Below, in pieces: positions 13,246 to 64,000 of a DNA stretch of 64,000 bases. Position 1 is the stretch's first letter. Each line of letters begins with the position of its first letter. Origin of the DNA: Acinetobacter phage Ab15. Both the position numbers and the translations under genes were made by a program. The stretch lies in the sequence record PP763259.1; one strand, given 5' to 3'. The notes under the pieces were generated by a model. It saw only the letters and a program-made list of their open reading frames with translations, made no database searches and was not told the origin of the DNA.

Positions 13246-13259
13246 TTTAAGGAGTATGT

Positions 13260-13607: not shown

Positions 13608-13620
13608 GAAAGGAGGGTTT

Positions 13621-14817: not shown

Positions 14818-14821
14818 AGGA

Positions 14822-15571: not shown

Positions 15572-15591
15572 TGAGGGTTTATTTTTAAGGG

Positions 15592-16008: not shown

Positions 16009-16017
16009 GAGGCTTAA

Positions 16018-17481: not shown

Positions 17482-17489
17482 GAGGTTAT

Positions 17490-18116
17490 ATGATAGATCA
17501 TAGCTTCACAGAAAAAGCTCGATCAAGATATACAGGAACCTTTAAGGGTGATGGTGTTTTTGATTGTGCAGTTAGAACTGGTATTGCATATGAACAAGAT
17601 TGCTTAGATCAGTTTGATGACTTTGTTGATAAGCTTTTTAACATTGACAAATCTTCTGGTTTGATGTTAGACCTTATAGGGAAAATTGTAGGTCAGGATA
17701 GGGTTTTAATTTCTTACACTGACCAAAATAATTTTGGTTTCTTAGGTCACCCCTTGGCAGAATCCTTTGGTACAAAAGCAAATCCAAATATTGGTGGTTA
17801 TTGGAAGAGTTCTTCGTCTTCCAGCACTATTTATAGGAAGATGGCTGATGATACTTACAGGACTGTCTTGAAGGCAAGAATTGCATCAAATATCTCTAGA
17901 GGAACTATCAATGACTTCCTCAGAGTTATAAATATTCTTACTGGTCACACTAGATCTCAAATTATTGAGGGTCCTGAAAGCGGTAGTGTCACTTTGGTAA
18001 TCCCTTCGGGTAATGCAACATTAGTTCAATATTATTATACACGTATAGGACAATCAGATCAAATTCTGCCAATTCCTGTAGGTGTTAGTTTAAAAGTTAT
18101 TATTGTAGAGGAATAA
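17490..18116 (+). CDS. XkdU-like tail protein (DUF2313-type)
   Basis: 208 aa by position after the J-like gene. Confidence 0.4.
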   Translation: MIDHSFTEKARSRYTGTFKGDGVFDCAVRTGIAYEQDCLDQFDDFVDKLFNIDKSSGLMLDLIGKIVGQDRVLISYTDQNNFGFLGHPLAESFGTKANPNIGGYWKSSSSSSTIYRKMADDTYRTVLKARIASNISRGTINDFLRVINILTGHTRSQIIEGPESGSVTLVIPSGNATLVQYYYTRIGQSDQILPIPVGVSLKVIIVEE

Positions 18117-18117
18117 A

Positions 18118-19182: not shown

Positions 19183-19197
19183 TTAGGAGTAGGAGCG

Positions 19198-19581
19198 ATG
19201 GAGATATTTTCAATTAGTACAGCCATTGCCTTCATCAAACCTATAATTCCAAATATCATCGGTGGTGCTTTATCTATTAAGGATGAGATAACAAGTGGTG
19301 CTAAAGAACAATCTTTTAAGAAATACTTTGTTCTTTTCACTATGTTTATCTTGGCAGTATCTTTTGGGTACTACCTTGGTGGCTTTATTATTGAGTATTT
19401 GAAGATAGAGAAATGGAGTGGTGACTTGCCCACATTCTCTTATGCAATGATCATGATATTAGCTACAGCATCGAGTCTAAGGTTTATTAAGAAATTCACA
19501 AGCCGTATCGAAGAAATATTGGATTTAATCTTTGATGGTTTTATCGGCTTGATCAAAACCATATTTAAGATGGATAAGTGA
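19198..19581 (+). CDS. membrane protein (holin candidate)
   Basis: 127 aa with 3 predicted hydrophobic helices. Confidence 0.3.
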   Translation: MEIFSISTAIAFIKPIIPNIIGGALSIKDEITSGAKEQSFKKYFVLFTMFILAVSFGYYLGGFIIEYLKIEKWSGDLPTFSYAMIMILATASSLRFIKKFTSRIEEILDLIFDGFIGLIKTIFKMDK

Positions 19582-19602
19582 TAGCCATGAAGGAGTTATC
19601 GA

Positions 19603-19929
19603 ATGAATAACATTATCGACAGTATTACTGCATCTTTTGTTGGAATAGCTTTGTTGCTAACCCCAACAGTTGTATTCCAAGGGGTGATGGTTGCACTTGT
19701 CGCCTTTTTCATTTGGATTGAGTATTTCTCAAAGAAATTTGATAAGAATGGTTTTATGTATGTGATGTTCACATTTATAGGAATGTCAGCATCCATACTC
19801 TATTACTATGCCCCTAGTATTCAGACCGATTTTGGTTGGACTATAGCGTTAATTACATTTAGTTTATACACAATATACTTCTTAAAGTATATCTGGAGAA
19901 TGAGAAAAGATAATCGCACAGGAGATTAG
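19603..19929 (+). CDS. membrane protein (holin candidate)
   Basis: 108 aa with 3 hydrophobic helices and a charged C-terminus (RMRKDNRTGD). Confidence 0.3.
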   Translation: MNNIIDSITASFVGIALLLTPTVVFQGVMVALVAFFIWIEYFSKKFDKNGFMYVMFTFIGMSASILYYYAPSIQTDFGWTIALITFSLYTIYFLKYIWRMRKDNRTGD

Positions 19930-19930
19930 A

Positions 19931-21175
19931 ATGGAACAACTTGTTTTAAATATTAATAAAGTCCCTGTTGTGGAAGCATCTCAATTTAAATACTCAGACC
20001 ATATTTTTGTTTCAGTTAATGGTCAATTTAAAAGAATGAAAAGAACTGATCTCATTACCTTATTGAGTGCTGATGTTAAGGGTGAAAAAGGTGAGAGAGG
20101 TCCGATTGGTTTACAAGGTAGGACTGGAGCTACAGGTGCAACTGGTGCCACAGGAGCTACAGGTGCAACTGGAGATAAAGGCGATAAGGGAGATCGTGGA
20201 GATCGTGGTTTCCGAGGATGGTCACCAGTCTTCAAATCAGTGGCTGAAGATGGTTCTATTTACCTATACTTAAGTGATTGGGTTGGTGGTGAAAATACAA
20301 AACCTGATGTTCTAGGTTATATCTCACCTACAGGGATTGTAAACTATATCACTGAGGGCGCAACTGCAATCAACACTGACTTTGCACCACAAATCAATGA
20401 CCTTCAAGCAAATAAACTAGACGTTGGCTCTACAACTAGTGCTATCCCTGAAGGTTCAAACTTGTATTATACAGATGCAAGAGTTCGTGATGTAATCCTT
20501 ACAGATCTCTCTACAGCGACCTCTACAGCTATTGTAGCGACAGATACTGTATTAAGTGCATTTGGCAAGGCACAGGCTCAACTTAACCTTAAACAGAACA
20601 GTTCAAGCTTAGGAACAGATGTACAAGCTACAGTTCTATCTACTTACACCGTTGGTGGTAATACAGAAATTGCCAACACTGACACCATAGCAGCAGCTTT
20701 TGGTAAAGCTCAAGGGCAAATTAATGCTAGACAACTTTCAGCCAATCTTTCATCTGATGTTCAGGCTTTAGTACTTTCAGGTTATGTTGTTGGTTCTAAC
20801 ACAGCTTTAGCCAATACAGATACTTTCATTGCTGCTCTTGGCAAGTTGCAAGGTCAGATCAATGCCAGAGAGGTAGCTGCCAATGTACCAGCAGATGTTA
20901 GGGCAACAGTTCTTACAGGTCTTTCTACAGCAAGTTCTACAGCAATTACTGCTACAGATACTGTCTTGTCAGCCTTCGGGAAATTACAAGCCCAAGTCAA
21001 CTTGAAACAAGACTCATCTACCCTAGCTGCAAATGTAAGATCAACAACCCTTACAGGTTTCTCTGCTACACCAAACTCAGCAGTAGTTGCAGCAGACACT
21101 ATATTGGCAGCAATAGGAAAATTACAGGCTCAAGTTGATAGTTTATCTTCTAGAGTAACAGCACTAGGAGGATAA
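19931..21175 (+). CDS. collagen-like tail fiber protein with internal ~42-aa repeats
   Basis: Gly-X-Y run GEKGERGPIGLQGRTGATGATGATGATGATGDKGDKGDRGDRGFRG (nt 20081..20218). C-terminal 2/3 consists of at least 5 divergent repeats ...TDTVLSAFGKAQAQLNLKQ... Confidence 0.6.
   Translation: MEQLVLNINKVPVVEASQFKYSDHIFVSVNGQFKRMKRTDLITLLSADVKGEKGERGPIGLQGRTGATGATGATGATGATGDKGDKGDRGDRGFRGWSPVFKSVAEDGSIYLYLSDWVGGENTKPDVLGYISPTGIVNYITEGATAINTDFAPQINDLQANKLDVGSTTSAIPEGSNLYYTDARVRDVILTDLSTATSTAIVATDTVLSAFGKAQAQLNLKQNSSSLGTDVQATVLSTYTVGGNTEIANTDTIAAAFGKAQGQINARQLSANLSSDVQALVLSGYVVGSNTALANTDTFIAALGKLQGQINAREVAANVPADVRATVLTGLSTASSTAITATDTVLSAFGKLQAQVNLKQDSSTLAANVRSTTLTGFSATPNSAVVAADTILAAIGKLQAQVDSLSSRVTALGG
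20081..20218 (+). repeat. 9-bp (GGn-GCn-ACn) collagen-like tandem repeat inside tail fiber gene
   Basis: ggtgcaactggtgccacaggagctacaggtgcaactgga... encoding (G-A-T)n and G-D-K / G-D-R triplets. Confidence 0.7.
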
Positions 21176-44826: not shown

Positions 44827-45399
44827 ATGACACGTTTAAATACTCAATATGTTGAAACTGAAAACACTGGTAAGTTAAAAGTTGGTGATGTTGTTGAAAT
44901 CTTAAATACAGAAGAATTCCATGATGGTGCAAAAGTTGGTGATCGTGCTGTTGTTCTACAAATTCGAACTATGCCAATCATGGGATTACGATTCGCTGTA
45001 TTAGGTTATGAAGTGGAAGGTTTTGACCACCTTGTATTCCGAAACATTGATTTTGAAGACTTTGAAGATGAAGTTAAATTCTTAGGTCGTCAAACAGATG
45101 CACATGAATTCCAAACCAAATACCTTGAAAAGTTAGGTGCTACAAACATCCGTGTTCTTGATCTTGCAGGTTTTGCCGAAGATTATGTAGAGCAAAATGC
45201 TGTTTACCCTCTAGTTGGTGCTGCATTGAAACCTACAATCAAGTGGGTTGAAAGCGAAGATAAAGGTCTTGTTGATGCTGTAACTGGTTGGGAAGCTGAT
45301 ACTGATGAAGATGGTGATGTTCTTGTGTTCCAACTTGAAGATGGTAACATCCAGTACACTCAGTTAGATGGAGGTGTTGAGTTAGCTTTAGCTAGTTAA
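44827..45399 (+). CDS. protein with N-terminal KVGD-repeat small-barrel domain (same family as the 56-64 kb array) plus acidic C-terminal domain
   Basis: N-terminus KLKVGDVVEILNTEEFHDGAKVGDRAVVLQI shares the double KVGD motif. Confidence 0.45.
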   Translation: MTRLNTQYVETENTGKLKVGDVVEILNTEEFHDGAKVGDRAVVLQIRTMPIMGLRFAVLGYEVEGFDHLVFRNIDFEDFEDEVKFLGRQTDAHEFQTKYLEKLGATNIRVLDLAGFAEDYVEQNAVYPLVGAALKPTIKWVESEDKGLVDAVTGWEADTDEDGDVLVFQLEDGNIQYTQLDGGVELALAS

Positions 45400-48850: not shown

Positions 48851-49678
48851 ATGTTAAAAAAGATTGCTTTAGTTGGTATCATGGTTGCTTCTGCAATTTC
48901 ATTCACAGGTTGTACACGAGTTACTGATGCAGAAGTTGGTGTAAAGACTAGTTTCACTGGTAAAATTTCTGATACACCACAATATCAAGGGTTGTACTTC
49001 CCTTGGGTATATAGCTTAGATAAATTCTCTACACGTAACCTGATTATTGATGTTTCTGGTCAGCCTATTGTTGAGAATGTGCAGATGGATGGTATGACAA
49101 TTCGGGTAAACTACTCAATCAAACCTGAACTTGCACCTGAAATGTGGAAAACACAGAAGGCACAACATATGGTTCGTGGAGGTGGTGAAGGAGATGAAAA
49201 ACGTGAGATATTCCTCATGGGTTTATATGTTGAGACAATCTCTCGTAATGTCATGATGGATGTGGTTAAGAACTACAAAGCCTTAGAGGTAAACTCTAAG
49301 CGTACAGAGATTGAGCCAATCTTAAAATCTCAGATTGTGAAGACAATCAATGCCAACGGTCGTGGTAAGTATGTAAATATTAATGAGGTGGTTATTATTA
49401 ATTCACAACCACCGAAATCTGTAATGGATTCCGCTAAGCGTTACTTGACATCACTAAACGACTTACGCACAAAGCAGAATGAAGTAGAGATTGCTAAGCA
49501 AGAATCTGAGCGATTAAAAGCTTTGGCTTCGCAAGCCAATGAAACCACTCTAGACTACATGCGAGCACAAGCCCAATTGAATAACTCAGAGGCAATGATG
49601 GAAATGGCTCGTAATAAGAGTGCCAATAAGTTGATCATTGCACCAATGAATATTACTTCATTAGGTAAGTTGGACTAA
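48851..49678 (+). CDS. SPFH/Band-7 (prohibitin/flotillin-like) lipoprotein
   Basis: Signal peptide + lipobox MLKKIALVGIMVASAISFTG-C. Central beta/alpha SPFH-like region and C-terminal E/A/Q-rich helix (EVEIAKQESERLKALASQANE...AQAQ). Confidence 0.5.
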   Translation: MLKKIALVGIMVASAISFTGCTRVTDAEVGVKTSFTGKISDTPQYQGLYFPWVYSLDKFSTRNLIIDVSGQPIVENVQMDGMTIRVNYSIKPELAPEMWKTQKAQHMVRGGGEGDEKREIFLMGLYVETISRNVMMDVVKNYKALEVNSKRTEIEPILKSQIVKTINANGRGKYVNINEVVIINSQPPKSVMDSAKRYLTSLNDLRTKQNEVEIAKQESERLKALASQANETTLDYMRAQAQLNNSEAMMEMARNKSANKLIIAPMNITSLGKLD

Positions 49679-50758: not shown

Positions 50759-51388
50759 ATGGTCCTTTTTGATTTAAAGGTGATAGAAATGAAAAAACGA
50801 GTTTATGGTGTAGGAATCAATGATTCTACTTTGCAAGTATGTCAGAGTAAAAAGAAACTTCCAGAATATAGGTTGTGGTGTAAGATGCTGGAGAGATGTT
50901 ACAGTGATTTTTATCACAAAGAGCATCCAACCTACAAGGGATGTGAAGTGGAACCCTTTCTCCTATCCTTCACAAACTTCTATAATTTCGTAAGAAGTTT
51001 AAAGGGTTTTGGTGAGGTTGATGAGAAAGGTAGACCCTTCCAGATGGATAAGGATATTTTAGTTAAAAGGAATAAAACTTATGGGGTTGACACTATTTGT
51101 TTTGTACCACAAGAGATAAATCTATTTCTTGTCAATGCTAAACTGCTTAGAGGTGAACTCCCAGTTGGTGTTGATTATTGTGAAGGGAATGGTAAATATC
51201 GTTCTAGGTTGAGGGTGTTTAATAAGAAAAAGCATCTAGGGTATTTTTCTTCTGTTGAAGAAGCGTTTGCTGCATATAAAGTTGCAAAAGAGCGACACGC
51301 TAAAGTTTTAGCTTTAAAATGGAAAGACAAAATAGACCCTAGAGTATATAACGCACTTATGAAATACGAGGTGAGTATAGATGACTAA
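50759..51388 (+). CDS. AP2-domain endonuclease-like protein (homing-endonuclease-associated DNA-binding domain)
   Basis: C-terminal KHLGYFSSVEEAFAAYKVAKERHA is an AP2/HNH_3-associated DNA-binding motif. N-terminal YGVGINDS...EYRLWCKMLERCYS. Start uncertain (50759 or ATG 50789). Confidence 0.4.
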   Translation: MVLFDLKVIEMKKRVYGVGINDSTLQVCQSKKKLPEYRLWCKMLERCYSDFYHKEHPTYKGCEVEPFLLSFTNFYNFVRSLKGFGEVDEKGRPFQMDKDILVKRNKTYGVDTICFVPQEINLFLVNAKLLRGELPVGVDYCEGNGKYRSRLRVFNKKKHLGYFSSVEEAFAAYKVAKERHAKVLALKWKDKIDPRVYNALMKYEVSIDD

Positions 51389-51581
51389 ATACAAAGTTGG
51401 TGATAAAATAAAGGTGGTAGCTACCAAGTTACAACAACGAGATATAGGAATTACATCAGTAAATTTGAAAGGTGAGATTGGGGTTGTGAAATCAATCTGT
51501 AGTGATGGGGTTACTGCAAATTTTAAGAAAGGTGGCGACTGGTCCTTACGCTTTAGTGATATCCAAAAAGTGGTTGAGTAA
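51381..51581 (+). CDS. small KVGD-family protein (divergent member)
   Basis: YKVGDKIKVV...GEIGVVKSI...DIQKVVE. Confidence 0.4.
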   Translation: MTKYKVGDKIKVVATKLQQRDIGITSVNLKGEIGVVKSICSDGVTANFKKGGDWSLRFSDIQKVVE

Positions 51582-52816: not shown

Positions 52817-53199
52817 CCGAATTAGTTAAACAAGAAGAGAAAACTTCTGAAGATGAAATCATAAAAGTTAAAAAGAGTGTTGTTGTAGAGTATATCCTGA
52901 AGGATAGAAAGCGACATATGAAAATGCAACAAGAACGTTACCGACATATGCGTGAAGTTGATAAAATTAACATGCGTATCTTATTAGGTCATGGTGCAAT
53001 GTGTTTCCTTTTAGTTTTAATTTTTCTTTGGAATGTCATCGACATTATTGCAACACGAGACTTTTCAGCAGTCCTTTTGGGTGCATTTAATGTAATAACC
53101 TTGTTTATGTTTGCTACTCAAATCGATAGTGCATTACACTGGTGGGATGAAGAAGAGGAAAGAACAGGAGGGTATCTTGCCGACACAGAAACAGACTGA
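52813..53199 (+). CDS. hypothetical membrane protein
   Basis: 128 aa, two TM helices. Confidence 0.4.
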   Translation: MTELVKQEEKTSEDEIIKVKKSVVVEYILKDRKRHMKMQQERYRHMREVDKINMRILLGHGAMCFLLVLIFLWNVIDIIATRDFSAVLLGAFNVITLFMFATQIDSALHWWDEEEERTGGYLADTETD

Positions 53200-53662
53200 T
53201 TCACTATACGTTGAAATGCTAGAACCCCTGAAGAAACGCTCTCATGGGGTTAGAGCTAAAGTTGGAGCAATCTTGGTGACCCAACAAGGTAACCTTCTGG
53301 TTGGAATTAATGGGCTACCTAAACAGCTTGGAAACAAGTTGGAAATTGAAGAGGTGGTTCTAGAAAGTCTGTTCGGACAGTCACCTAGATGGGTTCTCAC
53401 AGGTGAGTTAATAACTAAACCTACAGTTATCCATGCAGAGATGAACTGCATTTTAAAGGCTGCTAGAGAAGGAGTTAGCACAGTTAATTCTACTGTCTAT
53501 GTAACGCTATCACCATGTGCTCATTGTGCCTCTATGCTTGTTTCTGCTGGTGTAAAGCGGTTGGTTTATGTTGAGGATTATCGTGATCCTTCTGGGTTGG
53601 ATGTTTTAAGACGATGCGATGTGGAGGTGGTTAAGTATGAGCCTGAAAAGAAAAATGGCTAG
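53147..53662 (+). CDS. dCMP deaminase (CDA-fold zinc deaminase)
   Basis: HAEMNCI (His/Glu zinc-catalytic motif) and PCAHCAS (Cys-x-x-Cys). ORF opens at 53111. Likely start ATG 53147. Overlaps upstream gene. Confidence 0.7.
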   Translation: MKKRKEQEGILPTQKQTDSLYVEMLEPLKKRSHGVRAKVGAILVTQQGNLLVGINGLPKQLGNKLEIEEVVLESLFGQSPRWVLTGELITKPTVIHAEMNCILKAAREGVSTVNSTVYVTLSPCAHCASMLVSAGVKRLVYVEDYRDPSGLDVLRRCDVEVVKYEPEKKNG

Positions 53663-55209: not shown

Positions 55210-55424
55210 CATTCTTTAATGAAGGGCGTATTGGTGGAAAAGATGAGGTAGAGTTGGGAACTAGGGTAATATCAAGTCTCAATGTGCACAGTTTCAATAA
55301 AGTCACCTACGAGTTTTCCTTCTTGATTTTTGGTGATGAGTTTGATAAAACTATCTACACACGCTTTGATATAGATTTTAATATCGAAGACCATGAAGAA
55401 TTTATCTGGAGAGATGATGGGTAG
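55191..55424 (+). CDS. hypothetical small protein
   Basis: 77 aa. Confidence 0.3.
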   Translation: MLEIKMTFFNEGRIGGKDEVELGTRVISSLNVHSFNKVTYEFSFLIFGDEFDKTIYTRFDIDFNIEDHEEFIWRDDG

Positions 55425-55698
55425 ATTTCAAATAGGTGAGGTTGCTATACTGGAAACCATCCCTGAAATTTTAAAAAGGGATTTAGCCATTTGTAAAATT
55501 CATGAAGGTGCAGTATGCAAAATTCTTGATATTATTGGTGATGGTAAAACACTGGTTATTGGAAATGAGAAATGGGACTGTTCTCAAGAGGTTGATGTTA
55601 TGAGACGTGCCAAAATTAAACCGCCAGAGAAATATTCTACATATAATGGTAAAGCTATACGTATTAACACTTTATTTTTAGGAAAAATTTATGGATAA
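55393..55698 (+). CDS. small-barrel family member (divergent; ...IGEVAIL...GAVCKILDI...GNEKWDC)
   Basis: 101 aa. Loose match to the KVGD/NPxW family. Confidence 0.3.
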   Translation: MKNLSGEMMGRFQIGEVAILETIPEILKRDLAICKIHEGAVCKILDIIGDGKTLVIGNEKWDCSQEVDVMRRAKIKPPEKYSTYNGKAIRINTLFLGKIYG

Positions 55699-55757: not shown

Positions 55758-56174
55758 TTGGATTTTGGTCAGCTTACTTTATTTTTACCTAATAGGATTC
55801 CTATGAAACAAATTATTTTTCTAGATGATGAAAGAGTTATCCAAGACGTAACTTGGATAGACTACTCTCAATGGTCAGGTGCTTATGTTATTTCTCAAAG
55901 TTCAGCTTCTCGTTTAATTTCGTACATTAAACATTATGGGAAATACTTTGACTGGGAAAATACTTTGTTTTCCTTAGACCATGACCTTCAGGATTTTGAT
56001 GGGGAGGAAGAGTCTACAGGTTATACTTTCATTAAATGGTTGGTTGACTTTATGGTTGAGAACGAAATTTCTTTAAAGTACCTCCATGTAGTTGTGCACT
56101 CACAAAACCCTATTGGCAAAGAAAACATTGAAAAATATATCAGTAATGCTAAACTACACTATTTAGAATTCTAG
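55758..56174 (+). CDS. hypothetical protein
   Basis: 138 aa. Confidence 0.35.
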   Translation: MDFGQLTLFLPNRIPMKQIIFLDDERVIQDVTWIDYSQWSGAYVISQSSASRLISYIKHYGKYFDWENTLFSLDHDLQDFDGEEESTGYTFIKWLVDFMVENEISLKYLHVVVHSQNPIGKENIEKYISNAKLHYLEF

Positions 56175-56180: not shown

Positions 56181-56399
56181 TTGATGGGATATTACAAAGT
56201 AGGTGATGTAGTTGAAATTACCAAACTAATAGCTTTAGATGAAGAACTTGGTATAAAAGTTGGGGATATTGCGAAGGTCCAACGAGTAAAAGATTACGAT
56301 GATGGTGATCATCATATCATCTGTTATAATCCAAAATGGGATAGATTAACTGATAGATTAAGACGAATGGTCCCCCGACAGTTAAAAAAGGTGAAGTGA
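56181..56399 (+). CDS. KVGD/NPxW small-barrel family paralog
   Basis: YYKVGDVVEI...GIKVGDIAKV...ICYNPKWD. Confidence 0.55.
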   Translation: MMGYYKVGDVVEITKLIALDEELGIKVGDIAKVQRVKDYDDGDHHIICYNPKWDRLTDRLRRMVPRQLKKVK

Positions 56400-56629
56400 T
56401 GAGGGATCGTCTACATGTTGATATAAAACTTGGTGACAAAGTAGTCGTATACTTTGCTATGGGTATTGACAAAAGGTACAACATAAAAGATGGAGATGTT
56501 GCCAAGGTGATACTAACTGATCAAGATGGTGCTTGGTGTTATAACCCTAATTGGAAAGTTGTAGAAGGTCAAGACCTTAAGATTAAAGCTAACTATATGT
56601 CATCTACACAAATAGAAAAGGTAAAGTAA
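56396..56629 (+). CDS. KVGD/NPxW small-barrel family paralog
   Basis: KLGDKVVV...IKDGDVAKV...WCYNPNWK...QIEKVK. ATGA overlap. Confidence 0.55.
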   Translation: MMRDRLHVDIKLGDKVVVYFAMGIDKRYNIKDGDVAKVILTDQDGAWCYNPNWKVVEGQDLKIKANYMSSTQIEKVK

Positions 56630-56631
56630 AT

Positions 56632-56862
56632 ATGAGTTACGATGCTGATAAATTCGAATATGGCGATAAGGTTGAAGTTATGCAGCTTTGCACATTTGAT
56701 GCAACGTACAACATTAAAGTTGGTGATGTAGCCAAAGTAAGATTTGTTCAAACTACATTTAGTGGTGAACAATATATTGAGTGCTACAACCCTGAGTGGG
56801 ACCATGAGGGTATTGGTGGTGATCGGAACATGCTGGCTTGGCAAATTAAGAAGGTAGGCTAA
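56632..56862 (+). CDS. KVGD/NPxW small-barrel family paralog
   Basis: YGDKVEV...IKVGDVAKV...ECYNPEWD...QIKKVG. Confidence 0.55.
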   Translation: MSYDADKFEYGDKVEVMQLCTFDATYNIKVGDVAKVRFVQTTFSGEQYIECYNPEWDHEGIGGDRNMLAWQIKKVG

Positions 56863-56873
56863 GGAGGTGATTA

Positions 56874-57095
56874 GTGGGAAAATATAAAGTTGGGACTAAG
56901 GTTAAAGTTGTGAAACTAACTCAGGGCGACTTTGATAGGGGTGTTCGAGTAGGACATATTGCTAAAGTTCTTGAAGTAAGGGGTTTAGATGGGGCTGCCT
57001 ATTGTCACAACCCCGAATGGGATTATAGAGGGTTACAACGTCAAAGTAGGACAATGTTACCCCACCAAATTGAAAAATGTGAGGTGCACAAGTGA
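56874..57095 (+). CDS. KVGD/NPxW small-barrel family paralog
   Basis: YKVGTKVKV...VRVGHIAKV...YCHNPEWD...QIEKC. Confidence 0.55.
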   Translation: MGKYKVGTKVKVVKLTQGDFDRGVRVGHIAKVLEVRGLDGAAYCHNPEWDYRGLQRQSRTMLPHQIEKCEVHK

Positions 57096-57325
57096 GTGTA
57101 GATTTTAGTCAAGATAAAAGTAAAGGCAAAGGTTTACCAATTGAGGAAATTCGTTATCGTGCACCAAAATATGCTACACATTATGAAATTCAAGGAAATG
57201 AGGTGGTATACTACGCTAAGGACCAAATAGGTCGTTGGTGCTATGTCGATGATGAAAGTGGTGGAGGTTGGCCTACACATTCTTGTGAATGGGATCGTCT
57301 GGATAATGAACTGAAGCCACTTTAA
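57092..57325 (+). CDS. small protein, divergent family member (C-terminal CEWDRL)
   Basis: 77 aa. Only the C-terminal half resembles neighbours. Confidence 0.35.
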   Translation: MSVDFSQDKSKGKGLPIEEIRYRAPKYATHYEIQGNEVVYYAKDQIGRWCYVDDESGGGWPTHSCEWDRLDNELKPL

Positions 57326-57326
57326 T

Positions 57327-57548
57327 GTGGTTTTACTTTTTGGAGATTATGTGATGTTGAAAGTTGGTGATAAAGTAGAGGTGATAGAGGTTTTAGCTGC
57401 CGATGAGTGGGCTAATATTAAAGTAGGTGATGTTGCAAAAGTCACTGTGGTGAGAGGTCCTTTTTGGATTCAATGTGAAAATCCTGAATGGGTAGACGGT
57501 TTCATGCCTATGAGAGAATACCAAATCAAAAAGGTAGGTAATTTATGA
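57327..57548 (+). CDS. KVGD/NPxW small-barrel family paralog
   Basis: LKVGDKVEV...IKVGDVAKV...CENPEWV...QIKKVGNL. Confidence 0.55.
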   Translation: MVLLFGDYVMLKVGDKVEVIEVLAADEWANIKVGDVAKVTVVRGPFWIQCENPEWVDGFMPMREYQIKKVGNL

Positions 57549-57739
57549 GTTACCATTTAAAGGTTGGAGATAAGGTGGAGATCACGTGGATTCACCAACT
57601 TGATGACTGCGATGGAATTAAGGTTGGTGATGTTGCAAAGATTGTTTGCGTGATTAATGAAAGGTGGTACATCTGTGCTAATCCTAACTGGTTGGCTGGA
57701 AAAATGCCAATGAAAGACTACCAAATCAAAAAACTTTAA
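57545..57739 (+). CDS. KVGD/NPxW small-barrel family paralog
   Basis: LKVGDKVEI...IKVGDVAKI...CANPNWL...QIKKL. Confidence 0.55.
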   Translation: MSYHLKVGDKVEITWIHQLDDCDGIKVGDVAKIVCVINERWYICANPNWLAGKMPMKDYQIKKL

Positions 57740-57758
57740 AAATTATTTTAAAAAGTTG

Positions 57759-57787
57759 TTGACAGGAAAATTAAATACCACTAACAT
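57759..57787 (+). promoter_or_regulatory. sigma70-like promoter (TTGACA-17-TAACAT) before AAA ATPase gene
   Basis: gtTTGACAggaaaattaaataccacTAACATaag. Confidence 0.45.
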
Positions 57788-57875
57788 AAGCATCATAGAG
57801 AACAAGCAAACAAAGTTCTTAGTGAAATACTTGAATAAACAGCACATTGGTGCACAAACTATCTAGGAGATATTA

Positions 57876-59069
57876 ATGGATTTACTTATTGGTCATTCTT
57901 ACCAGTTAATCAACACTAAAGATCCAGCTTTCATGTTCACAACTGGTTTTAGTGACCCTAAGACAAATAAAGTCATTAAAGATGCTGTTATTAAACCATA
58001 CAGCAAAGATGATGATGGTGATGTTTTTGCTTATGCATACTTCCCAGATCGTCAAGACACTATTATCAATCCAGATCACAATGTGTTGATCATTCGAAGT
58101 GAATTTGATTTGTTTAAAGAAGTTGGTGCTGGTGATCAATCTCAACCAGAAGTGGATGGAATTGAAGAAAGTGAAGTATTCTCTCACAATCTTAAGAAGA
58201 TGTTCCAAGAGATGGTTGATAAAAACCTAGGCTCTGAAGAGATGCAAGCGAAGATCACTGAAACTATCCGTGAAACTGTGCTAGAGCAAGCTCCACGACC
58301 ACTTGAGGTTAAATTTGGTGAGAAGACAACTGTAATTGGTACTGCTCACGTAATGCTTGAAGAAGCTTTAAAACGCTTGAATGCAACAAAGAACATTATG
58401 TTGGTTGGTCCTGCTGGTTCTGGTAAGACTTACCTTGCAGCACAACTTGCAGAGTCTTTACAGCTTGACTTCTCATCAATTTCTTGTAGCTCTGGTATGT
58501 CTGAATCAGTAATTACTGGTTGGTTGTTACCTGTTGATGGTGGTGCATTTGAATACCATGAAAGTGACTTTATTCGAATTTACGAAAATGGTGGTGTGTT
58601 CTTGTTTGATGAAATGGATGCTGCTGACCCATCTATCCTATTGATCATCAACCAAGCATTAGCTAATGGTAAAATTACAGTTCCACAGCGTAAAGGTAAT
58701 ACAGAAGTTAAACGACATAAAGACTTCATTTGTGTGGGTGCATGTAACACATTTGGTCGTGGTTCTAACTTGATGTACTCTGGTCGTGAACGTTTAGATG
58801 AATCAACCCTTGACCGTTTCCGTTTAGGTTTGATGGAAATGGATTACGACAAGCTCCTTGAAGAAAAAGTTGTTGATAAAGCTGTTCGTGAATGGGCTTG
58901 GCAAGTACGTGCTCGAATTCAGGAAAGTGGTTTACGCCGAGTGATGTCAACACGTTTCATGATCGATGCAACTAAGTTGTTACAAAATACTGATGCAACA
59001 ATGCAGAAAGTAAAAGATATCTTCTTTGTTGGTTGGTCTGATGACGAGAGACATAAAACTGATTTATAA
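57876..59069 (+). CDS. AAA_5 family ATPase (MoxR/CobS/NorQ-like) with about 150-aa N-terminal extension
   Basis: Walker A MLVGPAGSGKTYLA. Walker B VFLFDEMDAADP. Sensor region and ...STLDRFRLGLMEMDY (arginine-finger/LDRF motif typical of CobS/MoxR). Confidence 0.7.
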   Translation: MDLLIGHSYQLINTKDPAFMFTTGFSDPKTNKVIKDAVIKPYSKDDDGDVFAYAYFPDRQDTIINPDHNVLIIRSEFDLFKEVGAGDQSQPEVDGIEESEVFSHNLKKMFQEMVDKNLGSEEMQAKITETIRETVLEQAPRPLEVKFGEKTTVIGTAHVMLEEALKRLNATKNIMLVGPAGSGKTYLAAQLAESLQLDFSSISCSSGMSESVITGWLLPVDGGAFEYHESDFIRIYENGGVFLFDEMDAADPSILLIINQALANGKITVPQRKGNTEVKRHKDFICVGACNTFGRGSNLMYSGRERLDESTLDRFRLGLMEMDYDKLLEEKVVDKAVREWAWQVRARIQESGLRRVMSTRFMIDATKLLQNTDATMQKVKDIFFVGWSDDERHKTDL

Positions 59070-59084
59070 CAAAAACTTCCCAAG

Positions 59085-59120
59085 AAACCCCTAAAGGAAT
59101 TCCTTTAGGGGTTTTATTTT
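59085..59120 (+). terminator. intrinsic terminator (aaacccctaaagg aatt cctttaggggttt + tattttg), near-copy of 22752..22784
   Basis: 13-bp palindrome differing from the 22752 element by one complementary pair (tgaagg to taaagg). Confidence 0.75.
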
Positions 59121-59134
59121 GCATAAATTTTACT

Positions 59135-59162
59135 TGATTTAAAAATAGAATTTGTTTAGAAT
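59135..59162 (+). promoter_or_regulatory. sigma70-like promoter (TTGATT-16-TAGAAT)
   Basis: acTTGATTtaaaaatagaatttgttTAGAATc, 36 bp before 59199. Confidence 0.45.
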
Positions 59163-59198
59163 CTACTTAGTTATTAAGCTCAATAAGAGGATATCTCA

Positions 59199-60092
59199 AT
59201 GTATAAATCTGTTGAAAATGTTAAAGGTTTGCACGGTAAAGTGGCGATCGTTAAATATAGAAATGTTTCTGATGCTATGGACCACTATAAAAAATATGAT
59301 GTGGACATCCCTTTCAAGCACAATAAAGGTAAGGTTTCAGAGTATCGTGGTGGTCATCATAGTACTGATTGGACAGGTTTTAGTGATCAACGTCACTTTG
59401 AACAAACTATGCTTCATGGTGATAAAATCAAAGCGATTGAGATTGAAGAAATTCAAGCACCAGAAGTTAAGGTTGAGTCACGTAAACGTAAACGCCATAA
59501 AGGGCCTATCGGTGATACTTTAGATATTCATGCAGTATATCGTGGTGAATTGGATCGTGCATGGACCTATACCAAACGTGATATGCATGATGGTGGTATG
59601 AAAAACATCACCCTCCTAATTAACATTGGTGATAACTGTGGTATTTCCTCACAGGCATTAGGGTGGCGTGGTGCAGTGGCATTGAAAGTCTGTGATGTGA
59701 TGACTGAAGCTGGCTACAATGTTCGAATCATTGCTAACCAAATGACTGAAGATTTAACCCGTGATGACGATGGTTATGGCTACAATTGCACAACTGTTAA
59801 GGACTTTGATGAATACTTGGATGTGCCTAAGCTTGCTGCAATCTTCTGCCGTGCAGGTTTCTTCCGTTCAGTAATCTTCACCACAATTGTTTATGAAGCT
59901 GAATTACTGGGGAAACGTGTAGGTTACGGTTTAGGTCGATCTATCAAGTCACACAGTGAGGAAGGTAAGAAGCTAATCGAACATGTGCACCAAGATGAAG
60001 GATATATGGTGGTATTCCCTTCGGTGAATGGTAAAGAGGATGCTTTAAATGCCATGAAGGAGATCTTAAAGCCTTATTTAATTGAGGAATAA
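59199..60092 (+). CDS. partner protein of the AAA_5 ATPase (CobT/VWA-position; no clear MIDAS motif)
   Basis: 297 aa immediately downstream of the AAA_5 gene with its own RBS (agaggat). Lys/Arg-rich linker KVESRKRKRHKG. Confidence 0.35.
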   Translation: MYKSVENVKGLHGKVAIVKYRNVSDAMDHYKKYDVDIPFKHNKGKVSEYRGGHHSTDWTGFSDQRHFEQTMLHGDKIKAIEIEEIQAPEVKVESRKRKRHKGPIGDTLDIHAVYRGELDRAWTYTKRDMHDGGMKNITLLINIGDNCGISSQALGWRGAVALKVCDVMTEAGYNVRIIANQMTEDLTRDDDGYGYNCTTVKDFDEYLDVPKLAAIFCRAGFFRSVIFTTIVYEAELLGKRVGYGLGRSIKSHSEEGKKLIEHVHQDEGYMVVFPSVNGKEDALNAMKEILKPYLIEE

Positions 60093-60094
60093 TC

Positions 60095-60388
60095 ATGGAT
60101 CGTCAAGAGATGATTAAGAAGTACCCTATCGGCTCTAAGCTGGTAGGGAGGTATCTAGGACACAAAAAGTCTTCAAGTGAAATGATTTGTAAGGTTGTTG
60201 GTTATTCTGCTTTCAGAACTTCGATTTTAGTCTATAATCCAGAAATAATTGGTCATACTGGTACTGGAAGATGTGTAGATCAAACAGGATCTAGAATTTC
60301 TGGGGAAAAGATAAAAGATTTTTATGGTAACCATTGTTGGTATATAGATAGTGAGACCTTATCTGGGTATAGATTATGCAAAAGATAA
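60095..60388 (+). CDS. FPIG/HCWW subfamily small protein paralog
   Basis: KYPIGSKLV...VVGY...YNPEIIGHTG...GNHCWYIDS. Confidence 0.5.
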   Translation: MDRQEMIKKYPIGSKLVGRYLGHKKSSSEMICKVVGYSAFRTSILVYNPEIIGHTGTGRCVDQTGSRISGEKIKDFYGNHCWYIDSETLSGYRLCKR

Positions 60389-60705
60389 ATCCTAAATTAA
60401 AAGAATTAGTCAAAAGATTTCCCATAGGTAGTAAGGTGGTAGCAGACAAAAATCATACCTCATCAGAAATATTTGATGAGTGTGGTTATGCCTACGTGGT
60501 TGGATATGGTTGTGATACCAAGCTAACATATGATGAATTTGGTTGGTTATTGTTGCACCACCCAGACTTTGATGGTCATAGTGGTAATTCTTATGGAATT
60601 CTTGGTGCTAATTTTGAGTTGTACCATGAGGGTGAAATTCAAAAGAAATATGGTTGTACCTGTTGGTGGGATACTGGAGGTCATTGTCAGTTATTGAAGG
60701 AGTGA
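60376..60705 (+). CDS. FPIG/HCWW subfamily small protein paralog
   Basis: KRFPIGSKVV...VVGYG...HHPDFDGHSG...KKYGCTCWWDT. Confidence 0.5.
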   Translation: MQKINPKLKELVKRFPIGSKVVADKNHTSSEIFDECGYAYVVGYGCDTKLTYDEFGWLLLHHPDFDGHSGNSYGILGANFELYHEGEIQKKYGCTCWWDTGGHCQLLKE

Positions 60706-60711
60706 GTTCAC

Positions 60712-61023
60712 GTGTCGGAAGAAAATGAAGTGGAAATTGTGAAAGAATTGGCGAAAAGGTTCCCCATAGGATGTAAAGTTGCCAAAGGTGATGTATACAA
60801 TTCCTCTATATTTCACTATGTAGATTTTGCATATGTCATTGGTTATAATATTTATGGTAATGATCACTGGTTACTTCTCTACAATGAAGATTTTGAGGGT
60901 CATTCATCAATTCATGGTGCACTAGTACACAACCATAAAAAATGCTCTATGGCTGAGATTAAAAAGAAGTACGGAAGGCATTGCTGGTGGGCTGATTCAA
61001 AATTAGTAAAAAGGGTGGGATAG
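60712..61023 (+). CDS. FPIG/HCWW subfamily small protein paralog
   Basis: KRFPIGCKVA...VIGYN...YNEDFEGHSS...KKYGRHCWWADS. Confidence 0.5.
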   Translation: MSEENEVEIVKELAKRFPIGCKVAKGDVYNSSIFHYVDFAYVIGYNIYGNDHWLLLYNEDFEGHSSIHGALVHNHKKCSMAEIKKKYGRHCWWADSKLVKRVG

Positions 61024-61027
61024 TAAT

Positions 61028-61309
61028 ATGCAGAAAGTTTCCAGTGATTTAGTTGATAAATTCCCTATTGGATGTAAAGTAATGGTGATTATTGGAGATG
61101 GTAGGTGGAAAACTGGAGATATTGGCAAGGTTATAGGTTATGGTGATACAGATGAGGTTGTTGTACATAATCCAAGTATAGAAGGGCATAGTGCAGCAAC
61201 TTCCTGTTTTGATGAGAATGGTTGTAGGATCAAAGATGAAGTAAGGTTAAAATATGCAGGTCATTTATGGTACATCCATATAAGAAGTGTAGAAAGAATT
61301 GGAGGTTAG
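61028..61309 (+). CDS. FPIG/HCWW subfamily small protein paralog
   Basis: DKFPIGCKVM...VIGYG...HNPSIEGHSA...KYAGHLWYIH. Confidence 0.5.
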   Translation: MQKVSSDLVDKFPIGCKVMVIIGDGRWKTGDIGKVIGYGDTDEVVVHNPSIEGHSAATSCFDENGCRIKDEVRLKYAGHLWYIHIRSVERIGG

Positions 61310-61312
61310 GTT

Positions 61313-61774
61313 ATGAGTAAGCAAGTAGAAAACCCTAAGTACAAATCCTTAAAACAACCTACAGGTAATGGTTCATATCGCCCTAAAGGTTATGGCTGGG
61401 TGCAAGTTGATAAGTTAGTAGGTTCTGACAATCAGTATGGTATTGTAGAGAATGGTATCTATAAGGTTGTGGTTTACAATCCTTTAGGTGTAATTATTAT
61501 TACTCCAAATGCCCCGTATGGTGACAACACAAGAGAGCTAATTAAGGATCAATATCATTGGGTTTCATTTGATGATGTCTTTAATCCAATACCTGAAGAT
61601 GAAGAACTGAAGGTTGGTGATAGGGTAATGCTTAATCAAGACTACAACACCTATAAAAAAGGTTATGTTATGAAAGTAAAAGAAATCAGAAAAGATGGTG
61701 ACGAATTGCTTGTACAACTTTGTAATCCGAGTACATCCTTCTGGGCTTATTCTCATAGAATACGTAAATTCTAA
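61313..61774 (+). CDS. two-domain protein with C-terminal KVGD/NPxW-family domain
   Basis: ...LKVGDRVML...GYVMKVKEI...LCNPSTSFWAYS. Confidence 0.45.
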   Translation: MSKQVENPKYKSLKQPTGNGSYRPKGYGWVQVDKLVGSDNQYGIVENGIYKVVVYNPLGVIIITPNAPYGDNTRELIKDQYHWVSFDDVFNPIPEDEELKVGDRVMLNQDYNTYKKGYVMKVKEIRKDGDELLVQLCNPSTSFWAYSHRIRKF

Positions 61775-61858
61775 TTCAGTTTCCCTTGAAAACTTGCACA
61801 AACAATCAAGAAATGGTAATATGCACCTATTAATCAACCAAGCATTGTAGGTGCTAAA

Positions 61859-62323
61859 ATGGCTAAACATTTTAAGTATACTAAACATCTTGAATCACAA
61901 AATTCTCAAACAATGGCATCACCATTTAATAAAGTGACTACTTATGTAGCTCGCTTTTTTCGTGTTGCCTTTAAAAACTTCTCAAGTATGTTTGAGGGTG
62001 GAAGTCCTCAAGATATCGTGCGAGATAGATTTAAAGAGTGGCACGAAGATGTAAACCTTGCAAATAAGAAGGTGACTTATCAAGTTGGTCAGAGAGTTAC
62101 TATTAATGATGTTTCTTATTTTGAGAAATACAGAGGTTTTCATGCTGGTGATGTTGCAAAAATTACCAAATTGATTAATGAGGATGGTGTTGAGAAGTTA
62201 GCACTCTTCAATCCTAAATGGATTACTGCTAAAGATGAACTTGGTTTGGGTTGTGTAATTGTTGATCCTAAGAAATGCATGGTGGAGATTGTTGGTGTAA
62301 AATCTGGGGGTGTAAATGTATAA
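61859..62323 (+). CDS. KVGD/NPxW family protein (N-terminally extended)
   Basis: YQVGQRVTI...FHAGDVAKI...LFNPKWI. Confidence 0.45.
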   Translation: MAKHFKYTKHLESQNSQTMASPFNKVTTYVARFFRVAFKNFSSMFEGGSPQDIVRDRFKEWHEDVNLANKKVTYQVGQRVTINDVSYFEKYRGFHAGDVAKITKLINEDGVEKLALFNPKWITAKDELGLGCVIVDPKKCMVEIVGVKSGGVNV

Positions 62324-62564
62324 TGAAGGTCTACCTGTAGATGGTGCTAAAATAGTGGTTAACAACCCTGATGGCATATCCAGAAGCACCTACAACGTAA
62401 GAGAAAACGATGTGGCGAAAGTAGTGGGGAGAATTCATGGTTCTGGTTACAGTATACTAGCATACAATCCTGATTGGAAAAATAAAGAGAGGGATCACGA
62501 TGCATTTACATACAAGGGACCTTGTGTGGTATTGTGTCGCAGTGAGTATGAGGTAATTGAGTAA
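62316..62564 (+). CDS. KVGD/NPxW family paralog
   Basis: VDGAKIVV...VRENDVAKV...AYNPDWK. Confidence 0.45.
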   Translation: MYNEGLPVDGAKIVVNNPDGISRSTYNVRENDVAKVVGRIHGSGYSILAYNPDWKNKERDHDAFTYKGPCVVLCRSEYEVIE

Positions 62565-62887
62565 TGGAAATGTGGGATGGTTATGGTGTGTCAAGCTATG
62601 CAAAAGGTGAAGGTGAAAAGAAGTCTTCGGAAGTTTTTGTAGGTTCAAAGATAGTTATAACAAAACCTGACAGTGTTTCTATTGAAAGGAATGCTCTTAA
62701 TGGTGATATTGGGAAGATTGTGTGCATAGAAACTGGTGTTTTTGGAGTAACTAGGTATCTGGCATATAATCCAAAGTGGAAATGTCGTGACGATGGTATG
62801 CAGGAGGATTTTAGATATGATGGATTGTTCATCGTCCTTTCGAGAAGAGAGTTTGAGGTGATTCGATATGAAAACAAAAGTTGGTGA
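62564..62887 (+). CDS. KVGD/NPxW family paralog
   Basis: VGSKIVI...LNGDIGKIV...AYNPKWK. Confidence 0.45.
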   Translation: MEMWDGYGVSSYAKGEGEKKSSEVFVGSKIVITKPDSVSIERNALNGDIGKIVCIETGVFGVTRYLAYNPKWKCRDDGMQEDFRYDGLFIVLSRREFEVIRYENKSW

Positions 62888-63080
62888 TAAAATCAAAATA
62901 ACCTCTCTTGATAAGTACAGTTATGCTACAGGAGTAGAAATAGGACATATTGGTAAAGTTGTTGAGGTTTACCCTGCTGGGTGCTTTGCTGAGAATCCGT
63001 TGTGGGGTGAAGGTTCAACAGGATTCTTTAACAATGAATTTGAGGTCTTAAAGGAATCTGAGGGGTTAAACGATGGCTGA
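62868..63080 (+). CDS. KVGD/NPxW family paralog
   Basis: TKVGDKIKI...VEIGHIGKV...AENPLW. Confidence 0.45.
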   Translation: MKTKVGDKIKITSLDKYSYATGVEIGHIGKVVEVYPAGCFAENPLWGEGSTGFFNNEFEVLKESEGLNDG

Positions 63081-63342
63081 GTGTTATTATTGGGATGTAC
63101 CATCACAAGTTAAAGAGCCTACAATAAAAGTTGGCGATAAGGTTGAGATAGTTGATCCTTGGCAGCTTGACAAACGACTTGGAATTCAGGTTGGGGATGT
63201 GGCTAAAGTGGTTTATGTGGGAAATGATCACTTAAGGTGCAATAATCCAAGATGGAATATATGTGATCATAAGATCGGCAGGGTGATGGGCTTAAATCAA
63301 ATTAAGCTGATTGTGAATACTCATAAGGAAGAATATCTATGA
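63073..63342 (+). CDS. KVGD/NPxW family paralog
   Basis: IKVGDKVEI...IQVGDVAKV...CNNPRWN. Confidence 0.5.
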   Translation: MAECYYWDVPSQVKEPTIKVGDKVEIVDPWQLDKRLGIQVGDVAKVVYVGNDHLRCNNPRWNICDHKIGRVMGLNQIKLIVNTHKEEYL

Positions 63343-63596
63343 AAGAACCAGAAATTGGCACAAAAGTTGTAATTGTTAATCCTGATGACCGTTCTCGTGC
63401 AGAAGGTATTGTTGAAGGTGATGTTGCGAAGGTTGTTGGGGTGGAGGCTTCCATAAAAAGTTGTGATTTACTACTTCTCTTGCACAATCCTAAGTGGAAA
63501 AACATGCATGAAGATGTTCTAAGTTGTAACACACCTTGTCATCTTGTATACTTATCTGAATGTGATATTTACGAAGAATGCCTTAAGGGGGATTAG
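63339..63596 (+). CDS. KVGD/NPxW family paralog
   Basis: IGTKVVI...VEGDVAKV...LHNPKWK. Confidence 0.45.
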   Translation: MKEPEIGTKVVIVNPDDRSRAEGIVEGDVAKVVGVEASIKSCDLLLLLHNPKWKNMHEDVLSCNTPCHLVYLSECDIYEECLKGD

Positions 63597-63598
63597 TT

Positions 63599-63949
63599 AT
63601 GAGTGCTAAGATACCAGAAATACCACCTATACCAAAACCAGAGCCAGAAAAACCTTATGAAAGTTCTCCGATTGTATATAGTCGATTTAATCATCAAAAG
63701 TGTCAGTATGAAGTATTTTCTGTAGGTGAGAGGGTGAGAATATTCCTTTACGGATCTCAATTCCTGAATAATTATGGGATTTACGATGGTCAAGTAGGGA
63801 AAATTGTAGAGATAAAAAAGGTTGATATGGGGAATGGACGTGTTGTTGCTAAGATTTACATAAAAAACCCACTATGGCACTATAAATTACCCGACAAAGA
63901 CCCTACAATAATGGAGTTTTTGGATCATGAAGTTTCCAAGTTGGAGTAG
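63599..63949 (+). CDS. KVGD/NPxW family paralog (extended N-terminus)
   Basis: SVGERVRI...YDGQVGKIV...IKNPLWH. Confidence 0.45.
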   Translation: MSAKIPEIPPIPKPEPEKPYESSPIVYSRFNHQKCQYEVFSVGERVRIFLYGSQFLNNYGIYDGQVGKIVEIKKVDMGNGRVVAKIYIKNPLWHYKLPDKDPTIMEFLDHEVSKLE

Positions 63950-64000
63950 GGGATAAAGTAGGGAGTAGGGGTAGAGTAGTAATTAAAGTGTTAACTAAAG

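Follow-up and report, generated by a model that had tools for sequence, protein, structure and literature searches.

A lineage-specific expansion of small SH3-like domain genes at the right genome end of AM24-like Acinetobacter phages

Introduction

Why should one end of a phage genome be filled with many divergent copies of a single tiny domain? The question is raised by a 64,000-nucleotide (nt) stretch of Acinetobacter phage Ab15 (sequence record PP763259.1), which we call the window and which was analysed at its full length. A preliminary description, made from the letters alone, noted in its last part (56181–64000) a dense tandem array of genes for small proteins sharing KVGD, GDVAKV and NPxW motifs, and took it for an arms-race locus diversifying in place. 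Here we report that the array is a lineage-specific expansion of a stand-alone SH3-like domain in an accessory region at the right genome end of AM24-like phages. This clade-restricted expansion was previously undescribed, and its cassettes turn over between phages whose hosts differ in capsule type.

The window belongs to an AM24/Herod-like Acinetobacter baumannii myophage. Over the 8 kb array interval its nucleotide identity to six A. baumannii myophages (Herod, YMC13/03/R2096, P577, Bestia, AM24 and Mithridates) is 92.6–96.9%, and in Herod the interval corresponds to 88.4–96.2 kb of 97.4 kb, the right genome end. A 2024 review groups these phages as ‘cluster 13’ of the unclassified Caudoviricetes, with genomes of ∼97 kb, and lists BS46, Phab24, TaPaz and B9 in the sister ‘cluster 14’ (PMC11126041). 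AM24-like phages are under development against carbapenem-resistant A. baumannii, and animal-model tests of AM24 and R2096 have been reported (PMC11768871, PMC6444642).

Family membership and extent of the array

A hidden Markov model (HMM) of the family, termed F1, was seeded with seven core copies and searched against all 322 six-frame open reading frames (ORFs; at least 40 amino acids, aa) of the window. The first round returned 13 members and the divergent copy at 44827 with E < 1e-3, and four further candidates with E values of 1e-3 to 0.03. No minus-strand or unrelated ORF scored better than E = 0.28, and minus-strand family members are ruled out by these scans. The iterated search converged on 17 members, all on the plus strand. 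Fourteen of them lie in 56181–63949 (starting at 56181, 56396, 56632, 56874, 57327, 57545, 61313, 61859, 62316, 62564, 62868, 63073, 63339 and 63599); the other three are the divergent upstream copies at 44827, 51381 and 55393, of which the last two joined on iteration. One common HMM recovers the F1 copies of the dense run of 64–154 aa paralogues that had been recognized by eye, including the divergent copies and the domains placed at the C-termini of two larger proteins (61313 and 61859), an architecture borne out by the domain table.

A second subfamily had been noted at 60095–61309. Its four genes align well with one another and form a coherent group, F2, which is weakly linked to F1: profile–profile comparison (hhalign) gave E = 1e-4 and a probability of 57% over strands 1–3 and the (Y/H)NP motif. 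Some copies in relatives match both HMMs (R2096 16438–16710; L006 6754 and 9003; L013 10975). We treat F2, with moderate support, as a branch derived within one family.

Of the 21 plus-strand genes in 56181–63949, 18 are family members (14 F1 and four F2); with the three upstream copies the window holds 21. The earlier count of at least 20 is correct only when F2 and the divergent copies are included. Likewise, nearly every gene in the interval is a paralogue, but three non-members interrupt the run (57092–57325, an AAA_5 ATPase gene at 57876–59069 and a DUF7192 gene at 59199–60092), and family genes occupy only 5.1 kb of the ∼8 kb first assigned to them. The array does continue beyond the window end, but by about one weak member only: in Herod a 106-aa gene (L001 19807–20127) is followed by the genome end. 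The C-terminal QIKKV-type ending, described as frequent, is limited to a subgroup of seven copies. The genes are genuine; they have Shine-Dalgarno-like sites, are kept between phages, and mostly show ratios of non-synonymous to synonymous substitution (dN/dS) below 1.

Fold of the domain

The AlphaFold model of the protein encoded at 57327–57548 (mean predicted local distance difference test, pLDDT, 88) is a five-stranded SH3/KOW/Tudor-like β-barrel. The domain comprises ∼55 residues and stands alone; its five antiparallel strands close into a barrel that bears RT, n-Src and distal loops, the features of an SH3-like small β-barrel, and a short helix lies within the long loop between strands 1 and 2. 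The F2 model (60712–61023) starts with an N-terminal helix, continues into an SH3-like core and contains, in addition, an inserted hairpin and helix; its neighbours in BFVD overlap those of the F1 model. The F1 fold resembles OapB (score 8.2), the KOW domains of Spt5, NusG and RfaH (6.5–8.1), YorP, NdhS and PsaE, and also Tudor domains, MIB1 and HERC2 (6.6–6.9 for these last three). The suggestion of a KOW/SH3-like small barrel is therefore backed by both model and fold resemblances, which do not single out one family. Zinc binding by F2 was considered and rejected since no Cys is invariant.

Assignment to a described family is equally elusive at the sequence level, as the preliminary description had found. 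Pfam and NCBIfam scans of the window copies gave nothing above threshold. F1 copies match PHROG 5785 (E = 1e-24 to 8.5e-5) and F2 copies PHROG 16588 (E = 8.8e-15 to 9e-9), both with no function recorded. These are automatic clusters that carry no description, fold or function and record neither the kinship of the two groups nor their arrangement in an array; the two-domain genes of the array fall into other PHROGs (28097 and 34535). KOW (PF00467) was not matched at E ≤ 1 by any of ten copies scanned and, unlike the KOW proteins NusG, RfaH, Spt5 and L24, the array copies have no conserved basic surface, NGN domain or ribosomal context. A profile search of PDB sequences gave marginal matches only, to a short NfeD homologue (E = 0.018) and HERC2 (E = 0.026).

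F1 has a weak, indirect link to the DUF4314/MIB-HERC2-type SH3 domains, none of which has a known phage function. The window copies do not match DUF4314 (PF14192; gathering cut-off 27 bits), MIB_HERC2 (PF06701) or the Mind-bomb SH3 repeat (PF18346), even at E ≤ 1, and our literature search on DUF4314 found nothing. In some metagenomic proteins, however, repeats of the F1 domain are recognized by Pfam as DUF4314 or the Mind-bomb SH3 repeat over the same residues. Two such proteins, P0013 and P0015, match both the F1 profile and DUF4314, in P0015 at residues 135–172 and 133–169 respectively. These shared residues place F1, by transitive evidence only, as an undescribed branch of a DUF4314/MIB-HERC2-like SH3 assemblage. 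F1 and MIB_HERC2 are structurally similar but differ in motif: F1 has NPxW, whereas in the phages' own MIB_HERC2-like genes we read V-x-W-(D/S)-N-G. We take the latter, on our own reading, to be the typical MIB_HERC2 motif. These MIB_HERC2-like genes are a pair of adjacent small minus-strand genes that we observed in relatives, outside the window (L005 26778–27255 and L006 18024–18510); they carry the motif V-H-W-S-N-G-K-Y-N and match the F1 HMM marginally (E = 0.017–0.096), so the phage has a second, separate SH3-like mini-family.

Conserved scaffold and variable surface

Column entropies were calculated over 45 non-redundant copies from six phages. The Gly of VGD, in strand 1, and the Trp of NPxW, after strand 3, are invariant. 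The Asn and Pro of NPxW are nearly so, as are the Lys and Gly of GDVAKV, at the entrance to strand 2, and hydrophobic positions in the strands are conserved. Variability is high in the RT-loop with its helix (columns 11–20), the n-Src loop (columns 32–40), alternate positions of strand 3 and everything after the Trp; the termini and net charge vary as well, with predicted isoelectric points (pI) of 4.3–9.6. SH3 domains usually bind ligands through three regions, namely the RT-loop, the n-Src loop and a 3-10 helix lying between strands 4 and 5. The first two of these are among the variable regions here. The pattern is that expected of one scaffold with many specificities.

Distribution of the family

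The expansion is essentially confined to the AM24-like clade. Searched with the F1 profile in HMMER, 1.84 billion representative proteins gave only 214 matches at E ≤ 1e-3 and 33 at E ≤ 1e-10, the close ones being proteins of clade phages, and in a search of 5.8 billion proteins all 65 named matches were hypothetical proteins of this clade. When one F1 and one F2 copy were compared by tblastn with 50,697 phage records, only seven records of six clade phages were found. The whole genome of the sister phage BS46 contains no array and a single weak match, in an unrelated DUF3310 protein, and the PLSDB plasmid collection gave no match to the array. The annotation of a 97,154-bp ‘plasmid’ from an A. 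baumannii isolate includes one F1 copy (P0163; MGQ1358432.1, locus ACT414_18710). This ‘plasmid’ looks like a whole AM24-like phage genome assembled along with the bacterial isolate; carrier state, pseudolysogeny or contamination could account for its origin.

The distant F1 matches are metagenomic proteins with three to seven tandem repeats per chain (e.g. P0001, P0003, P0013, P0015 and P0023). An IMG/VR search with the four-repeat protein P0001 matched only its unrelated C-terminus. A further metagenomic protein, P0005 (1694 aa), consists in part of at least seven repeats akin to F1, KOW or DUF4314 and carries a sigma-70 region 1.1 domain at its C-terminus; it alone had KOW matches. Its N-terminal region resembles, by eye, an R-S-E ADP-ribosyltransferase motif.

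Two distant relatives, L014 and L015, were found through their DUF7192 homologues (41–44% identity). Both keep the gene order PhoH–Band7–dCMP deaminase–AAA_5–DUF7192, and neither has an F1 or F2 match at E ≤ 0.01, the L014 sequence stopping just past the DUF7192 gene. Downstream of the AAA_5–DUF7192 pair, L015 carries ∼25 other small genes (11004–20467) with mini-families of its own, each of two or three paralogues (15110/15456, and 16593/19010/19276 with a shared NGAWWAFQ motif). This position is thus a general hot spot of small accessory genes, which suggests that this genome end is a nursery for small gene families.

Variation between relatives and mode of evolution

Copies were counted with both HMMs in the equivalent 21–30 kb of each relative. 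Herod has 15 F1 and four F2 copies, R2096 17 and three, Bestia 18 and three, AM24 18 and four, and Mithridates 24 and three, compared with 17 and four in the window. Copy number therefore ranges from 19 to 27 per phage, although the phages are 93–97% identical across the 8 kb region and otherwise 93–99% identical. Among three parts of the window compared with the relatives by megablast, the array is the most variable (coverage 63–88%, identity 92.6–96.9%), followed by the replication genes (80–97%, 94.5–97.9%) and the structural genes (95–99%, 97.5–98.9%). Gene content as well as copy number thus differs between close relatives, in the manner of an arms-race locus.

A best-match table of the window copies against five relatives revealed mosaic orthology at single-gene resolution. 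The stretch 59199–63080 is virtually identical to Herod, and for several window copies some or all of the relatives lack an orthologue at more than 60% identity. The paralogues within the window are only 16–52% identical (median 26%), and DNA repeats in the array are limited to a ∼25-nt stretch encoding KVGDVAKV (72–84% identity), so there have been no recent duplications. Recent duplication in place was rejected on these identities.

We calculated dN/dS for orthologue pairs by the NG86 method. Positive selection was not seen in general: most values fall between 0.1 and 0.6, and only the F2 gene at 61028–61309 is near or above 1 (about 0.8–1.7). The array values exceed those of the neighbouring AAA+ and DUF7192 genes (0.05–0.17). 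Because the paralogues are old and the orthologues mostly under purifying selection, we interpret the locus as one of cassette turnover, not of ongoing duplication with positive selection. Differences between phages look as if recombination had replaced cassettes as whole units, and the idea of an array diversifying in place is not sustained.

Gene junctions and expression signals

The gene spacing, reported earlier as abutting or overlapping, was confirmed by measurement. The 17 junctions are −4, +2, +11, −4, +1 and −4 nt in the first block and −13, +6, +4, +3, +84, −8, −1, −20, −8, −4 and +2 nt in the remainder; nine are stop/start overlaps of 1–20 nt. There are three wide gaps, of 136 nt (57740–57875, before the AAA+ gene), 129 nt (59070–59198, between the AAA+ and DUF7192 genes) and 84 nt (61775–61858), all other spacings lying between −20 and +11 nt. 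Nearly every start is preceded by a Shine-Dalgarno-like purine run of the GGAG, GAGG or AGGT type. The translational coupling proposed for the array is plausible, but stop/start overlaps are common in dense phage modules.

Promoters were assigned as consensus matches only. A sigma-70-like promoter is predicted on the plus strand in the 136-nt gap (TTGACA-17-TAACAT, 57759–57787); both hexamers are unchanged in seven of seven relatives, while the spacer drifts. The AAA+ gene is followed by a strong hairpin like that of an intrinsic terminator on the same strand (59084–59115; 14-bp GC-rich stem and T-run), with a stem conserved in five of seven relatives, and the scan also places TTGATT-17-TAGAAT ahead of the DUF7192 gene. 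A possible extended −10 promoter (TTGCAC-17-TGnTAATAT, 61794–61822, plus strand) was read by eye in the 84-nt gap; it is absent from the consensus-scan list, and its −35 hexamer matches at only three of six positions. The site is found in six of seven relatives, with the −35 and TGn kept in all six and the −10 unchanged in five (TAGTAT in R2096). The array is co-oriented with replication and nucleotide-metabolism genes. This layout suggests early or middle expression, probably driven by the host polymerase, in at least three units.

Possible functions

We tentatively propose that the copies are small binding modules with host factors as their targets, at work early in infection; we regard this as a serious possibility rather than a probability. 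Each copy would be a small cytoplasmic module whose variable loops recognize a different partner. Host RNA polymerase, starting at sigma-70-type promoters, would transcribe the array along with replication and nucleotide-metabolism genes, which is why early or middle expression is proposed. The set would target host proteins or nucleic acids, serving host takeover, the neutralization of defence systems or both, and recombination between co-circulating phages would swap cassettes to match the host strain. We count in its favour the cREC domain protein encoded directly upstream of the array. Such domains are predicted to process cyclic nucleotides, cyclic ADP-ribose (cADPR) or 2′,3′-cyclic RNA ends in phage–host conflicts, with proposed roles in phage counter-defence or RNA repair (Iyer et al., 2021; PMC7824862).

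Several observations weigh against this proposal. The paralogues are ancient (at most 52% identical), the orthologues are mostly under purifying selection, and two classical signatures of an ongoing arms race are thus missing, namely recent duplication and positive selection across the genes at large. The near-invariant Lys, Asn and Trp could mark a common ligand site, and hence one shared partner in place of many. Promoter-like matches in the region are fewer than in shuffled sequence (54 versus 70.6), and we found no functional or expression data for the copies in the literature. A bolder form of the binding-module proposal, which we consider rather improbable, is a shuffled combinatorial library of SH3-like decoys or inhibitors, each directed against a different A. 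baumannii immune sensor or effector, so that host range would depend on cassette content over and above capsule type. In a more exotic version of it, the copies would be adaptors that select clients and feed different host proteins to the AAA+–DUF7192 machine.

Other functions would be compatible with parts of the evidence. The fold resemblance to KOW domains and OapB leaves some room for copies that bind nucleic acid or the transcription or translation machinery, for instance as a set of small regulators or mimics that attach to RNA polymerase, Rho, ribosomal protein S10 or RNA and redirect host gene expression; we judge this unlikely, in either the general or the detailed form. A role as exchangeable adaptors that bring substrates to the embedded MoxR/midasin-type AAA+ ATPase and DUF7192 protein, or as cofactors of the two, seems to us quite improbable, and we give no better chance to its more specific version, in which the face formed by the conserved Lys, Asn and Trp docks on the machine and the variable loops pick the client. 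The AAA_5–DUF7192 pair does lie between block A (56181–57739) and block B (60095–61309) in eight of the eight clade genomes or contigs examined and is far more conserved than the array; the near-invariant polar and aromatic scaffold residues and the three to seven tandem repeats of the domain within one chain in some distant homologues would fit as well. However, L014 and L015 possess the pair and no detectable F1 or F2, so pair and array are not obligately linked, and with the predicted terminator and promoters of their own, the pair and the blocks would fall into different transcription units.

The same multi-repeat metagenomic homologues, with the 1–20 nt overlaps at nine of 17 junctions, could also be taken to mean that the copies form a hetero-oligomer, a ‘split’ version of those proteins made in stoichiometric amounts by co-translation. 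This appears about as improbable as the adaptor role: near-identical phages differ freely in how many copies they have and in which ones, a poor fit to a fixed complex, and each gene has its own Shine-Dalgarno-like site. That the array is neutral or decaying duplicated DNA, or an artefact of ORF calling, is effectively refuted. All copies are annotated merely as hypothetical proteins, but dN/dS is below 1 for most orthologue pairs, the frames are intact and have ribosome-binding sites, the structure models are confident, and scaffold residues are conserved across the 45 non-redundant copies.

Relation to known expansions

In kind, the array resembles other lineage-specific domain expansions in phages. 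The closest parallel is Bacillus phage G, with a ∼35-copy expansion of Zn-ribbons (Iyer et al., 2021; PMC7824862): both cases present many paralogues of one tiny domain, with a proposed binding or regulatory role, in a single phage lineage. They differ in fold, and in the ∼97 kb genomes considered here 19–27 copies represent a larger fraction; moreover, the array copies are strictly tandem, and cassettes are exchanged between close relatives. Our literature search on expansions of SH3-like paralogues in phages found nothing.

Gene accordions and host-range multigene families, such as the poxvirus K3L amplification and the ankyrin/BTB genes, also place tandem paralogues of strain-variable copy number at a genome end. 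Accordions consist of recent, near-identical duplicates under positive selection, whereas the array paralogues are 16–52% identical and their orthologues mostly under purifying selection.

A single uncharacterized protein family makes up ∼5–6% of an AM24-like genome, and its content differs between phages with different hosts. If the copies bind host factors, they constitute a ready set of ∼45 natural variants on one tiny scaffold, which could yield new anti-defence or takeover activities and explain differences in host range beyond the tailspike. If they have no such role, the array still shows cleanly how a domain can expand within one lineage, with exchange of cassettes, in a phage of medium size.

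Individual copies

All genes of the array are on the plus strand; orthologues below are those of the best-match table. Block A opens with a 72-aa F1 copy of subgroup 1a with a QLKKV end (56181–56399; HMM E = 3.7e-30, PHROG 5785 E = 1.3e-24), whose sole orthologue among the five relatives is in R2096 (93%), the best matches in the other four reaching 52–53%. It is followed by a 77-aa copy (56396–56629; E = 7e-30) with no orthologue above 41% identity in the five relatives, an acidic 76-aa copy (56632–56862; pI 4.6, E = 3.4e-35) with an orthologue in Mithridates only (86%), and a basic 73-aa copy (56874–57095; pI 9.6, E = 8.1e-30) with orthologues in Mithridates (93%) and R2096 (77%) only. The 73-aa copy used for modelling (57327–57548) and a 64-aa copy (57545–57739; E = 3.8e-30), for which no match in the five relatives exceeds 53%, complete the block.

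In block B, the F2 copies are of 97 aa (60095–60388; F2 HMM E = 1.3e-42, supported by the F2 alignment), 109 aa (60376–60705; PHROG 16588 E = 9e-9), 103 aa (60712–61023; modelled with AlphaFold2, pLDDT 85.8) and 93 aa (61028–61309; F2 HMM E = 1.1e-41). The second has an orthologue in Herod only and at most 33% identity elsewhere, the third is likewise shared with Herod only, and the last is nearest to F1, which it matches marginally (E = 0.03).

The two larger proteins follow. In the 153-aa protein (61313–61774; PHROG 28097), which is 92–100% conserved in relatives, the domain table places the F1 domain at residues 99–144; residues 30–54 are possibly a degenerate second copy. The 154-aa protein (61859–62323; PHROG 34535) has its F1 domain at residues 73–125, and PHROG 5785 matches residues 72–128. 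Beyond them lie an 82-aa copy of the subgroup ending in E(Y/F)EVI (62316–62564; E = 3.1e-6, improving to 7e-19 on iteration), a 107-aa copy (62564–62887) recovered by the F1 HMM and PHROG 5785 (E = 4.3e-20), a 70-aa copy (62868–63080; HMM E = 1.5e-9), an 89-aa copy of subgroup 1a (63073–63342; E = 4.6e-31) and an 85-aa copy (63339–63596; E = 2.8e-9), which is mosaic, with 92% identity to Bestia versus 76% to Herod. The last (63599–63949; 116 aa) has a proline-rich N-terminal extension and the domain at residues 40–102 (E = 1e-5, improving to 3.7e-19 on iteration).

The divergent upstream copies are also on the plus strand. The 101-aa F1-like protein at 55393–55698 joins on iteration only (E = 1.5e-4) and has an orthologue in Herod only; that at 51381–51581 (66 aa) joins on iteration at E = 4.9e-4 and has no NPxW motif. 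The gene at 44827–45399 encodes 190 aa, with an N-terminal F1-like half-domain (residues 16–48; HMM E = 1.5e-4) and an extremely acidic tail (net charge about −22, pI 4.3). This protein is 92–100% conserved in all relatives and possibly a nucleic-acid mimic.

Neighbouring genes

The Trp/Cys-rich 77-aa protein encoded within block A (57092–57325, plus strand; PHROG 6698) has no F1 or F2 HMM match. It is 83–91% conserved in all relatives compared, and L015, a distant relative, encodes a homologue (12869–13219, E = 5e-6); the gene is therefore older than the surrounding array.

The AAA+ ATPase (57876–59069, plus strand; Pfam AAA_5 E = 2.1e-17) is of the MoxR/CbbQ/CobS/midasin type, with PDB sequence matches to midasin, CbbQ and CobS; its gene is 97–99% identical in relatives (dN/dS about 0.05–0.17). 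For the DUF7192 protein (59199–60092, plus strand; PF23822 E = 6.6e-91) our search found no solved structural relative. The two genes also adjoin in distant relatives that have no array. They are separated in Bestia and Mithridates by an inserted minus-strand gene of ∼290 aa.

Directly upstream of the array, the cREC_REC (PF20274) domain protein (55758–56174, plus strand; assigned with Pfam) is 89–96% conserved in all relatives. Further upstream lies a conserved PhoH–SPFH/Band7–dCMP deaminase module (including 48851–49678 and 53111–53662), the order of which is retained even in relatives with only ∼41–44% protein identity.

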